Below are positions 4,176-30,161 of a stretch of DNA of 64,000 bases, one piece after another. This stretch comes from Nitrospirota bacterium (lineage in GTDB: Bacteria; Nitrospirota; Thermodesulfovibrionia; Thermodesulfovibrionales; SM23-35), in the NCBI GenBank assembly GCA_013388435.1, contig JACAFE010000032.1, forward strand, positions 6,851 through 70,850, given 5' to 3'. Made by a program: the position numbers and the translations under genes. The notes beneath the pieces are model-generated. The model was not told where the DNA came from. It was given only the letters and a program-made list of their open reading frames with translations, and did not search any database. Numbering within the stretch: position 1 is the first letter of the stretch; every line of letters starts with the position of its first letter.

Positions 4176-6011
4176 ATGTTTAAAGAGCGAGATTATGATG
4201 TAATTGTTATTGGAGCAGGTCATGCAGGCTGTGAAGCAGCTCTTGCACCTGCGCATCTCGGACTTTCAACCTGTTTATTCACAATCAATCTCGACACCAT
4301 CGGACAGATGTCGTGTAATCCAGCTATAGGTGGTCTTGCAAAGGGTCATCTTGTAAGGGAAATAGATGCTCTCGGCGGAGAAATGGCAAAGGTAACTGAT
4401 AAAGCAGGCATTCAATTCAGATTATTGAATTTATCAAAAGGACCAGCTGTATGGTCATTAAGGGCACAGGCTGACAGGGTCTTATATAAACTTGAGATGC
4501 GTAAGGCTATAGAATCTCAAAGAAATCTTGATGTTAAACAGGCATTGATTGATGAGATTATAATAGAAGATGGAAGAGTTAAGGGAGTTGTTACTTCTCT
4601 CGGTATATTTTATGGAGCGCGTGCTGTAATAGTAACTACAGGAACATTTTTAAAAGGTTTAATACATATAGGACTTGAGAATTTCTCTGCAGGACGAGCG
4701 GGTGAATTCCCTTCAATTAAACTTTCTGAATGCCTGAGGAATCTTGGATTAAAAATGGGAAGACTCAAGACTGGAACTCCCCCGCGTCTGGATGCCAAAA
4801 CAATAGATTTTTCAAAAACAGAAACTCAATTCGGAGATGACCCTCCACCACATTTTTCTCACAGTACCGAAAAAATAACAAATCCACAACTGCCCTGTTA
4901 TATTACATATACTAACAAAGAAACTCATAAAATTATTCTCTCCAATCTTGACCGGTCACCGTTATACAGCGGTAAGATCAAAGGCACAGGCGCAAGATAC
5001 TGCCCTTCTATTGAAGATAAAGTAGTAAAGTTTGCGGAACGCGAAAGGCATCAGGTGTTTCTCGAGCCTGAGGGTCTTGAAACCAAAGAATATTATGCAA
5101 ATGGAATTCCAACAAGTCTTCCATACGATGTTCAAGTAAAATTCGTAAGAACAATTTCAGGACTCGAAGAGGCTGAAATTATGAGACCAGGCTATGCAAT
5201 CGAATATGACTTTGTTTATCCTTCTCAATTAAAACACTCTCTTGAAACAAAAACAATTCAGGGTCTTTTCCTTGCAGGACAGATTAACGGTACTTCTGGA
5301 TATGAAGAAGCTGCTGCACAGGGACTTATAGCTGGCATAAATGCAGCGCTTAAAATAAAAGGTAAAGAACCATTTATTCTTGGAAGACATGAAGCATATA
5401 TAGGAGTTCTTATCGACGACCTTATAACAAAAGGGACAAAAGAACCTTACAGAATGTTTACTTCAAGAGCAGAATACAGACTATTGTTAAGACATGATAA
5501 TGCTGATTTGCGTCTTATGGATAAAGGATATGCTCTTGGACTCATTAATGAAGATCTATATAAAAAATTCAAAGAGAAAAAAGAACTAATCAATGAAGAA
5601 TTGAATCGTATCAGAAACACAAGAATTAAGCTGGATATTAATAAAACAGAAAGTCTCGAACAATTACTGAAACGACCCGAAAATAACTATGAAATTATCG
5701 AAAAACTCTGTCCATCAAATAAATCTTTATCAGACGAGGTTAAAAAACAGGTTGAGATACAGGTAAAATATCAGGGATATATCAATCAGCAGATGCAGAT
5801 GGCTGAAAGACTCAAAAAAATAGAAAACAAAAAAATACCTGAAGATTTTGATTTTAAGAAAATTAGCGGTTTATCACGTGAAGTTCTTGCAAAACTTGAG
5901 GAAATCAGACCGGAAAATCTCGGGCAGGCAAGCAGAATTCCGGGAATAACACCAGCAGCTATTTCATTACTTCTTATTGCCATAGAAAAATTAAGAAAAG
6001 GACAAACATAA
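4176..6011 (+). CDS. mnmG: tRNA uridine 5-carboxymethylaminomethyl modification enzyme MnmG (GidA)
   Basis: 611 aa. FAD motif VIVIGAGHAGCEAA, GLFLAGQINGTSGYEEAAAQG, and the length typical of the family. Confidence 0.95.
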   Translation: MFKERDYDVIVIGAGHAGCEAALAPAHLGLSTCLFTINLDTIGQMSCNPAIGGLAKGHLVREIDALGGEMAKVTDKAGIQFRLLNLSKGPAVWSLRAQADRVLYKLEMRKAIESQRNLDVKQALIDEIIIEDGRVKGVVTSLGIFYGARAVIVTTGTFLKGLIHIGLENFSAGRAGEFPSIKLSECLRNLGLKMGRLKTGTPPRLDAKTIDFSKTETQFGDDPPPHFSHSTEKITNPQLPCYITYTNKETHKIILSNLDRSPLYSGKIKGTGARYCPSIEDKVVKFAERERHQVFLEPEGLETKEYYANGIPTSLPYDVQVKFVRTISGLEEAEIMRPGYAIEYDFVYPSQLKHSLETKTIQGLFLAGQINGTSGYEEAAAQGLIAGINAALKIKGKEPFILGRHEAYIGVLIDDLITKGTKEPYRMFTSRAEYRLLLRHDNADLRLMDKGYALGLINEDLYKKFKEKKELINEELNRIRNTRIKLDINKTESLEQLLKRPENNYEIIEKLCPSNKSLSDEVKKQVEIQVKYQGYINQQMQMAERLKKIENKKIPEDFDFKKISGLSREVLAKLEEIRPENLGQASRIPGITPAAISLLLIAIEKLRKGQT

Positions 6012-25213: not shown

Positions 25214-25300
25214 TGGTGCCGGTGGTGGGAGTCGAACCCACACGGAGTTGCCCCCACCGGATTTTGAGTCCGGCGCGTCTGCCAATTCCACCACACCGGC
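25214..25300 (-). tRNA. tRNA-Leu (anticodon CAA), CCA encoded
   Basis: The reverse complement reads GCCGGTG..CCGGA-CTCAAAA-TCCGG..long variable arm..GTGGGTTCGACTCCCAC-CACCGGC-A-CCA. It folds by eye as a class II cloverleaf. Confidence 0.9.
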
Positions 25301-25434: not shown

Positions 25435-26400
25435 TTATCAAAATCACATGGAAAGTATTGTTTAAAGAGATTAAAACTTAATATCATCCCAATTAACCTC
25501 AACATTTTTATGGGTTCTTATCCTTACCCGAGAAATGGGATTCTAAAATTGGATTACGAATTCATCTTAATTTTTAAGAAATATGGGAATCCCCTCAAGG
25601 TTACCAAAGAAATTAAAGATCAATCAAAATTAACAGATGAGGAATGGAATCAATATTTTACAGGACATTGGAACTTCCCAGGAGAAAAACAAGATAAACA
25701 CCTTGCGATGTTTCCTGAAGAGTTGCCAAAACGGCTTATCAAGATGTTCAGTTTTGTTGGTGATACGGTCCTTGACCCATTTATTGGAAGTGGCACAACC
25801 TCTTTAGCCGCAAAAAATCTTAATAGAAATTCTATTGGCTACGAGATAAACGGGGATTTCTTACCAGTTATAAAAGAGAAGCTTGGAATTAAACAGGGCA
25901 GTATCTTTCAGGATGTAACTTTTGAAATTATTAAGCAAGAAGAATTAAAAATAGATTTTAAAGAAGAGATAAAAAAATTGCCATATATTTTTAAAGACCC
26001 TATAAAATTTGATAAGAAAATTGACCCAAAGAGATTGAGATTTGGTTCCAAAATAGATAACCTCAACTATGAAAAGGGAAAATATCACAAAGTAAAAGAA
26101 ATATTATCTCCGGAATTCATAGTCATAGATAACGGGTTAAAAATAAGACTGATTGGGGTAAAACCAAAACCAGAGAAGAATGGTGAAGCAGTTCAATTTT
26201 TGAAAGAGAAACTGAAAGGGCAAGGGGTATTTTTAAAGTTTGACAATGTAAAATACGATGAGAAAAACCACTTGCTTTGCTATCTTTATTTATGGAACAA
26301 AACTTTCATAAATGCCCATTTGATTAAAAATGATTTGGTAGATGTGGATACTTCTTTTGATTATAAATATAAGGTTAGATTTTTAAGCTTAATCAAATAG
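25435..26400 (+). pseudogene. 5'-truncated beta-class N4/N6 DNA methyltransferase fused to a degenerate SNase-like domain
   Basis: The ORF keeps HLAMFPEELPKRLIKMFSFVGDTVLDPFIGSGTTSLAAKNLNRNSIGYEIN (motif I region). The upstream (D/S)PPY catalytic motif is missing: the frame is closed by TAA at 25432-25434 and nothing upstream encodes it. The C-terminal 110 aa (IRLIGVKPKPEKNGEAVQFLKEKLKGQGVFLKFD..HLLCYLYL) follow thermonuclease topology but lack its catalytic residues. Confidence 0.7.
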
Positions 26401-26407
26401 GTTTACT

Positions 26408-26991
26408 ATGAAAGTAAAAATCACTATTGAGGAAATCAGAAAATATCTGGATATTGAAACGCCAGAATTTCCTAAGTATGTGGCACCGCTTATCAATTTA
26501 GCAAATCAGTATGCACAGGGAACAAGACCAAAAGTAGTGGGTCAAATGAGCGAGCTTATTAAGGAATTTGAGGGGAAAACATTAACTGAGTGGGAAGAGT
26601 GGTACTTGAAGAAAAACCCGATGCAATAAGGAATGCCACAGAAAAGATATTACTGAAACTGAAAGAACTTAAAAATGCCTTAAATAAAATTAATCGGGCA
26701 ACTGTTGAACAATGGGTAAGAGATTTAGTAATTGTGAAAACCTATGCTGGGCTAAGATTTCAAGAAGCAATCTTGAAGAAAGGTGCAGAAATTAAAGGAA
26801 CAAATTATAGACTCGCCGAGCCAGATGAAGAATCAAAAGGAATAGATGGTTACATTGGAGACATTCCAGTATCTATAAAGCCACATACCTATGAACTGAA
26901 ATCCGCATTACCAGAGCACATAGAGAATAAAATTGTCTATTATAGAAAGATTGATGATGGAATCGAGGTTGATTATGGAGAGATTTTGTAA
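26408..26991 (+). pseudogene. Restriction-endonuclease-like ORF interrupted by a 1-nt frameshift
   Basis: ORFs 26408..26629 and 26590..26991 overlap. The reading ..TEWEEWYLKKN|PDAIRNATEK.. is restored by adding one base in the A5C3 tract at 26612-26619. The C-terminal half has a PD-(D/E)XK-like pattern (EPDEESKGIDGYIGDIPVSIKP). Confidence 0.6.
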
Positions 26992-27268: not shown

Positions 27269-27349
<81 letters not shown>

Positions 27350-28152: not shown

Positions 28153-28182
28153 TTGACAAAAAATAAAAATAAATTTTATAAT
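28153..28182 (+). promoter_or_regulatory. Near-consensus sigma70 promoter upstream of the HTH-methyltransferase
   Basis: TTGACA (28153-28158), an 18-nt spacer, then TATAAT (28177-28182). Confidence 0.55.
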
Positions 28183-28200
28183 TGTTTCAAATTGTTTCAA
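28181..28200 (+). repeat. Tandem direct repeat ATTGTTTCAA x2 (candidate operator)
   Basis: Two exact 10-bp copies at 28181-28190 and 28191-28200. They overlap the -10 element and end 10 nt before the ATG at 28211. Confidence 0.85.
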
Positions 28201-28210
28201 AAGGTTTAGA

Positions 28211-28297
28211 ATGCTTACAGAAAAAGAAATTTTAAGTGAATTAAAAATTTCAAGAACAACTTTGTGGCGTTTGAAAAAAAAGGGTTGCCATGTATAA
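28211..28297 (+). other. Short ORF encoding the first half of an excisionase/MerR-type HTH, detached from the methyltransferase frame
   Basis: My translation is MLTEKEILSELKISRTTLWRLKKKGCHV*. The second half of the same HTH (GLPCIKVGSSYRYNKSDVLEWV) is in the frame of ORF 28264..29691. The two frames meet in the A8 tract at 28274-28281. Confidence 0.7.
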
Positions 28298-29691
28298 AAG
28301 TAGGCTCTTCTTATCGTTATAATAAGTCTGATGTATTAGAGTGGGTATCAAATAATCAAGCTGATGAGTATTTACTTGATTATTTTGAAACACAACAAAT
28401 ATCAGAGAACCTTGAAATACAATTTTCATATCCAATAAATAATCAAGTAAAAAATACTTCTCCTTCCCAAAAAATAAAAAACAATTATCAAATAACAATT
28501 CCATATCTTTTAAGACATAATAAAGAGTATTTAGATAAATTACTTACCCAACACGAACTTCATGAATTACAAACACTACTTTCTAAATATAGTAAAGATA
28601 TTCAGAATGAAGAAGCAGTAAGAATATTTTCTGACTCTTATTGTGCCATTCTTAAAAAAAGATACCAATCTGAATATGAATATGATATTAAATTTGATAA
28701 ATTTTTAAACAATAGTAACAACTTGAAAATAATATGGGGAGATTGCTATAAAGCTCTTAAAAAGATGAAATCAGAATCAATACACCTTATGGTCACTTCA
28801 CCGCCTTATTATAATGCGAGGGAATATTCGAAATGGGAAAATCTAAATAATTATCTCGAAGATATGAGATTGATTATTAGGGAATCATATCGTGTTTTGG
28901 ACAACCATAGAGTTTGGGTATTTAATGTTGGAGATGTATTCGATAATGACAATCTTAAGACAAAGTCAGTTTGGGGTAAAAGAAGACTACCATTAGGTTC
29001 TTATTTCATAAAAATATTTGAAGAAGAAGGTTTTGAATTTGTAGATGACATTATATGGGATAAAGGCGAAGTTGAAAGCCAAAGACATAAAAACGGAGGG
29101 GTAAATTATCCATTTTATCAATATCCTATAAACTGTTATGAACATATCTTAATTTTTCATAAACATAGATTAGACATAAATAAGATACCCTGTCCTATTT
29201 GTGGTTCTCTAAATGTTAATGGTAATACTCAATCAGAAATCGGGGTGCAAAGCTGGGAATGTAAAAACGATAAATGCTTAGAAAGAAGTCCTCATAATAG
29301 AGGTAAAAGATTTTCTTTAAGATCAAATATGATGCAGGATATTTTTAAAAGAAAAACAGAAAATATTATTGATGAATTTACATTATTTAAATGGAGAAGG
29401 GATATTGTAAAATTTCCACCTGTAATTAAAATTGATCAAAATGGTAATAACAGACTTGGAAATTCTGCACCATTTCCTAAAGATATACCTGAAATGGCAA
29501 TAAAGTTTTTTTCTTACGATGGGGAAAAGGTTCTTGATCCATTTGCTGGAAGTTTTACAACAGCAATTGTTGCTAAAAAACTAGGGCGTATTGGTATCGG
29601 TATAGAAATAAATAAAAATTTTGAGTCTGTTATTAAAAACCATATCATTACGGAATTAAACGGGATAATATTAGAAGAATATTTTGTTTAG
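28264..29691 (+). CDS. Beta-class N4/N6 DNA methyltransferase with Zn-ribbon insertion (N-terminal HTH disrupted)
   Basis: Motif IV is MVTSPPYYNAREY. The motif I region is VLDPFAGSFTTAIVAKKLGRIGIGIEIN. The insert is CPICGS..WECKNDKC. The start in the ORF track is the GTG at 28264. Confidence 0.8.
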   Translation: MAFEKKGLPCIKVGSSYRYNKSDVLEWVSNNQADEYLLDYFETQQISENLEIQFSYPINNQVKNTSPSQKIKNNYQITIPYLLRHNKEYLDKLLTQHELHELQTLLSKYSKDIQNEEAVRIFSDSYCAILKKRYQSEYEYDIKFDKFLNNSNNLKIIWGDCYKALKKMKSESIHLMVTSPPYYNAREYSKWENLNNYLEDMRLIIRESYRVLDNHRVWVFNVGDVFDNDNLKTKSVWGKRRLPLGSYFIKIFEEEGFEFVDDIIWDKGEVESQRHKNGGVNYPFYQYPINCYEHILIFHKHRLDINKIPCPICGSLNVNGNTQSEIGVQSWECKNDKCLERSPHNRGKRFSLRSNMMQDIFKRKTENIIDEFTLFKWRRDIVKFPPVIKIDQNGNNRLGNSAPFPKDIPEMAIKFFSYDGEKVLDPFAGSFTTAIVAKKLGRIGIGIEINKNFESVIKNHIITELNGIILEEYFV

Positions 29692-30161
29692 TCCTTAGAT
29701 AATTTCTTATCTAATATTCTGAAACGATCAATGACTTGCAATTTATCATATAATTCTTTTAATGTCTTAATATTTCCAGATTGTTTTACTCTCTCTATTT
29801 CATCCCAAAGTTTGTTAGAAGCAACTTCCTCAATTTCACCATTTTTGCATGATGGACATTTTGATATTTGGGAAGATACCTCTTTTCTTAAAAATAATTT
29901 TCCACAGTTTAAACATCTTTTACTTTTTAAAAATTTGCTCTTAATAATAACTTTATTGTAAAGATCACATTTTATGTTTGTGCAAGTAACCATATGTGTT
30001 GTATCCCAAAAAGCATTACATTTTTCGCAAATAAATTATAATGCCACAATATCTATTCTTTCATAATATGGAGGGAAAAAGACAATCTACCCTCTTTTAG
30101 AAAGTTCAAAGCCAACCATATGTTCTCCAATTTTCCCAAATTGCCCTTCTTTCATTTCCAT
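29688..30161 (-). pseudogene. Zn-ribbon / nuclease-like gene with two in-frame nonsense codons (possible partner endonuclease remnant)
   Basis: A single frame runs from ATG 30159-30161 to the stop at 29688: MEMKEGQFGKIGEHMVGFELSKRG*IVFFPPYYERIDIVAL*FICEKCNAFWDTTHMVTCTNIKC... The stops are TAG at 30087-30089 and TAA at 30036-30038. The 101-aa ORF 29688..29993 is the intact 3' part and carries four CxxC-type pairs. Confidence 0.55.

Follow-up and report, generated by a model that had tools for sequence, protein, structure and literature searches.

Within a 64,000-nucleotide stretch of Nitrospirota DNA, referred to here as the window, a minus-strand reading frame at positions 29688-30161 faces a DNA methyltransferase gene tail to tail. 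We found that this frame is a genuine pseudogene, the outcome of ordinary biology, and that its intact relatives are proteins of about 280 amino acids (aa) combining a PD-(D/E)XK nuclease core with a triple zinc ribbon. The window copy carries two nonsense substitutions, one missense substitution and a 369-bp deletion, and an active nuclease cannot be made from it. Considered together with its neighbourhood, the gene is very probably the decayed restriction endonuclease (REase) gene of a horizontally acquired, two-gene Type II restriction-modification (RM) cassette.

Lesions of the nuclease gene and the order of its decay

A preliminary description of this DNA had proposed that the frame once encoded the nuclease partner of the convergent methyltransferase and was inactivated by two point nonsense mutations. 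Translation bears out the frame itself: from the ATG at 30161-30159 to the terminal TAA at 29690-29688 it comprises 158 codons and reads MEMKEGQFGKIGEHMVGFELSKRG, stop, IVFFPPYYERIDIVAL, stop, FICEKC...LSKD, stop, with exactly two internal stops, the CxxC pairs CEKC, CLNC and CPSC, and a longest stop-free open reading frame (ORF) of 101 aa at 29688-29993. Counted as gene remnant, 157 codons, sense and nonsense, are left. The first internal stop (TAG, 30087-30089, minus strand) is a window-specific lesion, W25*, in which a G→A change at 30088 converted TGG into TAG. The tryptophan suggested earlier for this position was well chosen: codon 25 is TGG in every relative (L001, L010, L011, L005, L002 and L003, where L numbers denote loci), and W25 is invariant in 31 homologues. 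The second stop (TAA, 30036-30038, minus strand; K42*) arose from AAA and replaces lysine, one of the residues that had been guessed. K42 is invariant in the alignment, with AAA in L011, L002 and L003 and AAG in L005, and the TAA is common to L001 and L010.

The count of two lesions proved too low. At 30063-30065 (minus strand), a window-specific G→T change at 30065 has turned GAT into TAT and thereby D33 into tyrosine (D33Y). This aspartate lies within the motif PPYDER and is invariant across the nuclease family; its codon is GAT in L001, L010, L011, L005, L002 and L003, and the translation of L019 also has D33. The 3' part, formerly regarded as intact, contains the junction of an in-frame deletion of 369 bp (123 codons) at 29819-29828 (minus strand). 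This junction is the one remaining copy of a 10-bp direct repeat, GAAGTTGCTT; in a DNA alignment of the window with L001, copies of the repeat bracket the deleted 369 bp in the undeleted allele, and slippage or recombination between them would account for the loss. The missing segment codes for C116-C135 (the third zinc site), for FRTIQVKSTH (the strand with Q148-V-K150) and for the remaining strands of the core. The protein is therefore not the 157-aa product first envisaged, its true length being 280 aa, and the residual 101-aa ORF (29688-29993, minus strand) is a deletion chimera in which the second zinc ribbon (CLNC...CPSC) is fused to the C-terminal helical tail. Having lost QxK, the window copy lacks the conserved active site that the intact family possesses.

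Several stages of this decay are preserved in related contigs. L001 is a 45-kb metagenomic contig that is syntenic with the window and >99.7% identical to it; the two have in common hisG, mfd, the nuclease gene, the methyltransferase, a TPR gene and the remnant of an MjaI-like RM system. Its nuclease copy spans 281 codons with TAA as the sole lesion. The Logan contig L010 carries TAA and the deletion and still keeps TGG and GAT, and the more distant L011 (96-98% identity) keeps TGG, GAT and AAA alike, the ancestral N-terminus. The lesions thus form a nested series, from none at the N-terminus of L011 through TAA in L001 and TAA plus deletion in L010 to all four in the window, from which the order of events follows: K42* (AAA→TAA) came first, then the 369-bp deletion, then W25* (TGG→TAG) and D33Y (GAT→TAT). 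L011 was used for ancestral codons only. In that contig (ENA ERZ511474 NODE_52162, positions 952-1968), the first 81 nuclease codons, free of lesions, run in frame into an unrelated TPR/SH3 membrane protein (P0041); we did not accept this fusion as a real rearrangement, the contig having 2.4x coverage and being possibly chimeric.

The substitution pattern also bears on the state of the gene. Across 5607 bp compared between the window and L010, all four differences fall inside the 474-bp pseudogene, for which the chance under a uniform distribution is 5e-5. Between the window and L001, three RM remnants (the nuclease gene and two MjaI-like remnants) have accumulated 13 substitutions over 1949 bp, compared with 11 over the 6862 bp of five intact genes (Fisher p = 6e-4), and this excess, small as the counts are, suggests neutral drift of dead genes. 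The gene thus shows stops at positions where homologues have sense codons, loss of an essential segment and of essential residues, intact orthologues elsewhere and relaxed constraint.

The parent nuclease family and its fold

Homologues were sought first with the conceptual protein and then with the sister-strain sequence, its single stop changed to K. The first search returned P0002 and P0004-P0008, which align across both stops with the pattern '...ELSKRGWIVF...PPYDERIDI.AVKFIC...', and the second about 30 full-length proteins of 269-283 aa. Homologues that align over both stop positions are 47-81% identical to the query. The closest intact homologue, JZK55_17560 of Dissulfurispira thermophila (P0009), has 280 aa and is 76% identical (E 1.5e-147). 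Since homologues align across both stops, the frame is not open by chance, and the preliminary view that a real nuclease gene has been lost is upheld. Neither of the two outcomes that it had listed as contrary evidence was seen: the stops are spanned by some 30 full-length proteins, and the 101-aa ORF, far from being conserved by itself, occurs (as cluster P0001) in near-identical strains only, other relatives being ~280 aa long. The intact orthologues that it had hoped to see in related genomes do exist, as P0009 and about 30 others.

In a 31-sequence alignment, the residues E13, D33, E34, R35, D37, K42 and Q148-V149-K150 are invariant. The cysteines, 11 of them invariant and one (C86) nearly so, fall into three Cys4 sites: C45/48/60/65, C83/86/102/105 and C116/119/130/135. 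Distant relatives without the cysteine-rich segment (P0043, P0044, P0069, P0071 and P0075) were found by word-indexed and exhaustive profile searches; they read '...YIDIVAVKGRKIRTIQVKSS...', with the motif IDIVAVK-x-IRTIQVKSS running across the place where the segment is missing. The existence of these proteins means that the zinc module, ~100 residues, is an insertion. Judged by the alignments, it is placed in the hairpin between the D-bearing strand (beta2) and the QxK strand (beta3) of a classic PD-(D/E)XK arrangement. The intact protein of ~280 aa would thus begin with alpha1 carrying E13, continue with beta2 carrying D37 (in IDIVA) after PPYDER and beta3 carrying Q148-V-K150, and end in a helical tail; the three-Cys4 zinc module in the beta2-beta3 hairpin would presumably serve as a DNA-recognition element. 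The early guess of a PD-(D/E)XK nuclease is hence supported by profile and fold searches, and E13 and D37 do lie in the N-terminal part, as its E...D...E/K mapping had it. The third element was misplaced: it is not FICEKC, and the (Q)xK element lies ~100 residues downstream, past the zinc-ribbon insert, in the segment that the window has lost.

Three independent comparisons point to I-Ssp6803I as the nearest known fold. P0075 matches PF11645 (PDDEXK_5) with E 0.006 and 17.0 bits and P0043 with 12.4 bits, against a gathering threshold of 26.1 bits, and the zinc-containing proteins gave no hit to PF11645; the family is a structural neighbour of PF11645 and not a member by the Pfam criterion. When a profile of the insert-less relatives was compared with the PDB, the top match was 2ost_A, the homing endonuclease I-Ssp6803I (E 0.027), with QVKSS aligned. 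In this alignment, the Q148-V-K150 strand of the family matches VQVKSS, and GW-V..P..D..yDl is also in register. The AlphaFold (AF2) model of P0071 (pLDDT 89, pTM 0.86) retrieved 2ost in Foldseek with E 5.7e-6, probability 1.0 and a TM-score of ~0.6, followed by SPARDA DREN, Hjc and EcoRV. The full-length model of P0009 (pLDDT 89.1) shows a helix at 11-22, strands at 26-28 and 38-45, the insert, a strand at 140-151 and further strands. A PD-(D/E)XK core of alpha-beta-beta-beta-alpha-beta fold, closest to I-Ssp6803I and Hjc, is therefore supported for the family, mainly through its insert-less relatives.

The likeness to these enzymes has clear limits. I-Ssp6803I (2ost; PF11645), a tetrameric PD-(D/E)XK homing endonuclease, resembles the family core most closely in both structure and profile comparisons; it is intron-encoded and has neither a zinc module nor a partner methyltransferase (PMC3384342). 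The window's family differs from it in the three Cys4 ribbons of the beta2-beta3 hairpin and in an extra C-terminal helical region. With SPARDA DREN and Hjc, the family shares the minimal PD-(D/E)XK core topology (Foldseek E 2e-5 to 1e-3, P0071 model); unlike them, it has no Argonaute/APAZ partner and no resolvase-type context, and it has instead a constant methyltransferase neighbour and a zinc-ribbon insert.

The family is rare and patchy: a search of 1.84 billion representatives gave 44 clusters at E ≤ 1e-3, and 185,579 species genomes gave 10 loci. Scans of the 157-aa conceptual, the repaired 280-aa and the intact proteins against Pfam, NCBIfam and PADLOC yielded sub-threshold generic zinc-ribbon matches only, and nothing meaningful emerged when the repaired protein was compared with PDB sequences by phmmer. 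Annotated plasmids and phages, searched with P0009 by tblastn, contained no match from which a curated annotation could be taken. On these comparisons, the parent nucleases are a candidate for an uncharacterised family outside the REase families described in Pfam, NCBIfam, PADLOC and PDB, which also distinguishes the window's system from known Type II RM systems. An isolated 26-codon match to the nuclease N-terminus, 81% identical, lies at positions 5001-5078 of L021, a 438-kb contig of a Micrarchaeota metagenome-assembled genome (MAG); it has no methyltransferase homologue within 5 kb and may be a deep remnant or have arisen by chance.

The convergent methyltransferase and the restriction-modification reading

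The partner of the nuclease gene is a DNA methyltransferase encoded on the plus strand at 28211-29691, composed of an HTH_17 (helix-turn-helix, HTH) domain and a beta-class N6_N4_Mtase domain with a cysteine-rich insert. Its frame is broken after codon 24, and the catalytic part is open for 475 codons from the GTG at 28264. It matches Pfam N6_N4_Mtase (PF01555, 6.6e-33) and PADLOC MTase_II (5e-85), bears motif IV as SPPY, motif I as DPFAGSFTT, and FxGxG, and is 80% identical to the methyltransferase that partners the Dissulfurispira nuclease. Its nearest solved homologues (TTHA0409, M.MboIIA, an N4C methyltransferase and M.PvuII) are a mixture of N4-cytosine (m4C) and N6-adenine (m6A) enzymes, and the SPPY motif likewise does not discriminate between them. 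Within the ORF at 28264-29691, residues ~310-335 form a cysteine-rich insert, CPICGS...CKNDKC, with a weak match to N-terminal zinc-binding domains of the IS1/IS1595 type; it may contribute to target recognition.

The association of the two genes extends well beyond the window. We considered 12 non-redundant loci with enough downstream sequence to be informative (L001, L002, L005, L006/7/14, L008/9, L010, L013 and L015-L019), and in all 12, as in the window, a homologue of the window methyltransferase is directly convergent with the nuclease gene. The 4-nt overlap with the methyltransferase stop that had been noted for the window (29688-29691) is real and is the same in most loci (six of those checked). 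The hosts include Nitrospirota/Thermodesulfovibrionales, Nitrospinota, Bacteroidota/Saprospiraceae, Nanoarchaeota and unclassified MAGs, and there is in addition a Nitrosotalea protein; the nuclease family thus crosses the boundary between bacteria and archaea. Genes flanking the pair are unrelated between loci, and GC content in the cassette region of the window is 27% compared with about 35% elsewhere. The same pair with different flanks and a local dip in GC indicates that nuclease and methyltransferase have moved together between unrelated genomes, and, judged by these sequence features, we read the cassette as a mobile Type II RM unit.

Loss of the REase gene that leaves a solitary methyltransferase behind is well known, and the present locus resembles convergent Type II RM systems on such a path: a beta-class N4/N6 methyltransferase and a small PD-(D/E)XK nuclease stand tail to tail, they occur sporadically across bacterial and archaeal phyla with unrelated flanks and a GC content below that of the host, and the nuclease is dead where the methyltransferase is kept. 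A second, independent case is L019 (Nitrospinota MAG JACQEW010000087.1, positions 5001-5572), where the nuclease pseudogene has lost residues 35-123 and carries a frameshift next to an intact methyltransferase of the 500-aa class. On account of the convergent methyltransferase context, we consider a Type II RM function of the cassette likely, and infer that the nuclease cleaved at specific sites and that methylation blocked this cleavage. The SPPY-type N4/N6 methyltransferase would protect host DNA; in the window's lineage, the nuclease was knocked out stepwise and the methyltransferase left solitary, itself now with a frameshift in an A tract of its HTH.

The competing explanation that deserves most attention holds that the nuclease is tied to the methyltransferase without being a classical Type II REase, acting instead in homing or mobility, nicking, repair or methylation-dependent cleavage; the window copy would be a pseudogene in any case. 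We regard this as unlikely. The argument in its favour that the closest solved structure and the closest Pfam family are those of the homing endonuclease I-Ssp6803I (PF11645) is weakened by the closeness of I-Ssp6803I itself to R.PvuII and Hjc (PMC3384342): the fold neighbourhood therefore shows that the protein is a nuclease and not which kind, and cannot separate homing endonucleases from REases. It is also true that the function of the family is predicted from sequence and models, and that the distant insert-less relatives P0043, P0044 and P0075 bear other C-terminal extensions. Set against this are the strict convergent pairing with a homologous methyltransferase, often with the 4-nt stop overlap, at every informative locus across phyla, and the lack of intron or intein context at the loci. 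Moreover, the nuclease has died with the methyltransferase kept twice independently, in the window's lineage and in L019, a pattern to be expected if the nuclease is toxic without its methyltransferase.

Two further explanations would leave something functional in the window. One holds that the 101-aa ORF encodes a small zinc-ribbon protein, for instance a neo-functionalised DNA binder, and that the upstream frame is irrelevant. This ORF is indeed the longest uninterrupted one, with an ATG start and one full CxxC...CxxC ribbon, and it is called as a gene in a second strain (P0001); however, it starts at an internal methionine of the family protein, it is the product of a recent deletion junction, and the equivalent ORF in the undeleted sister strain has 224 aa. 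Of the four differences from L010, it contains two, both non-synonymous (F21I and I54L), which fits drift and is too few to test. We therefore deem a functional 101-aa protein very unlikely. More improbable still is a functional gene whose stops or deletion were introduced by sequencing or assembly, or are overcome by recoding or read-through. The window probably stems from a metagenome-type assembly, and the frameshift of the neighbouring methyltransferase lies in a homopolymer; the nuclease lesions, by contrast, are substitutions and a repeat-bounded deletion rather than homopolymer indels, as the preliminary description had reasoned for its two stops. Three independent assemblies carry the TAA, and two carry the deletion. 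Reading through both stops would not restore the nuclease either, given D33Y and the missing Q-V-K strand and core sheet, and the standard code is used by neighbouring genes, among them the 1045-aa mfd. An alternative genetic code or read-through was accordingly rejected, the sister strains having sense codons and the catalytic segment being physically missing.

Several observations weigh against the interpretation of the window gene as the relic of a Type II REase, and must be set beside those that favour it. The window lesions were read from the assembled bases of this particular assembly, and the methyltransferase frameshift, lying in a homopolymer, could be a sequencing error. All members of the family are annotated as 'hypothetical' and lack hits in Pfam, NCBIfam, PADLOC and the PDB sequences, and the nearest relative of known structure belongs to the homing endonucleases rather than the REases. 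Foldseek with the full-length P0009 model is not significant by itself (top match 2ost, E 0.12) because the zinc insert dominates the model, and the insert-less P0071 was modelled to get round this dominance. The fold call for the zinc-containing proteins comes mainly from the distant insert-less relatives, to which a profile link has E about 4e-8.

Probable methyltransferase autoregulation, a second decayed system and implications

The frameshift in the methyltransferase complicates the simple picture of an orphan enzyme. In L001 the gene is full-length (493 aa) from an ATG equivalent to window position 28211, and apart from one indel the window differs from it by one substitution in 1480 bp. 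The indel is an A8 homopolymer at 28274-28281 (plus strand; A9 in L001) that causes a -1 frameshift in the HTH and leads to an out-of-frame stop at 28295-28297. The shortened tract may be a homopolymer sequencing error, a case of phase variation or a first step in the decay of the methyltransferase. The proposal of an orphan methyltransferase was thus sound as to the dead nuclease and incomplete as to its partner. A solitary methyltransferase is plausible but not secure, the catalytic region being open and conserved and the HTH out of frame, and the frameshifted HTH of the retained enzyme sets the window apart from typical orphan-methyltransferase decay.

Upstream of the methyltransferase, a sigma-70 consensus promoter-like site (TTGACA-18-TATAAT, 28153-28182, plus strand) matches the consensus at 12/12 positions. 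Between its -10 hexamer and the start codon lie tandem direct repeats, TGTTTCA-N3-TGTTTCA(-N4-GTTT), with a 10-nt period (28183-28207, plus strand). The TGTTTCA repeats are kept upstream of methyltransferase genes that bear an HTH in L001, L002, L005, L019, L006, L015 and L016, which belong to different phyla. From this conservation, the repeats are probably the operator for the methyltransferase's own HTH_17 domain, through which its N-terminal HTH would repress its own promoter. Methyltransferases with N-terminal autoregulatory HTH domains include M.SsoII, M.EcoRII and M.MspI. The present system resembles these in its N-terminal HTH_17 and in the tandem repeat between -10 hexamer and start, found at seven divergent loci and the window; it differs in having direct, not palindromic, repeats spaced at a 10-nt period, in that regulation is predicted here, and in the broken HTH frame of the window. 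In L008 (7035-7295) and L009 (2157-2417), a separate 86-aa gene stands directly upstream of a methyltransferase (402 aa) that lacks the HTH; its product may be a free-standing counterpart of the fused HTH regulator.

At a distance of 2-4 kb, the window contains a second decayed RM system (25510-26991), between tRNA-Leu (25214-25300) and tRNA-Pro (27271-27349). In its methyltransferase, the match to PF01555 does not begin until profile position 87, the catalytic DPPY/SPPY region of the N-terminus being absent, and the C-terminus is SNase-like. A frameshift divides the accompanying endonuclease of the MjaI family (PF09568) into two parts, 26408-26629 and 26590-26991. This MjaI-like system is equally broken in L001, where the ATG at 25510 reads CTG, and substitution density is raised in its remnants as well.

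Our analysis calls for a correction of annotation at this locus: the 101-aa ORF should be marked as belonging to a pseudogene, and the methyltransferase as what a Type II RM system has left behind, solitary and possibly also decaying. In a natural setting, the locus illustrates cleanly the sequence of steps by which RM systems die, with the nuclease lost first by point nonsense, further damage following, and the methyltransferase affected later. Intermediate stages of this decay are kept in co-existing strains, and an adjoining MjaI-like system has been wrecked in parallel. With moderate confidence, we further propose that the intact relatives, such as JZK55_17560, define an undescribed Type II REase family, in which a triple Cys4 module in the beta2-beta3 hairpin would provide DNA recognition and the partner would be an HTH-fused SPPY methyltransferase autoregulated through TGTTTCA repeats. 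If confirmed as REases, these nucleases would add a new architecture, with zinc ribbons inserted into the catalytic hairpin, and the thermophile-related origin of the family may bring a new specificity of practical use.

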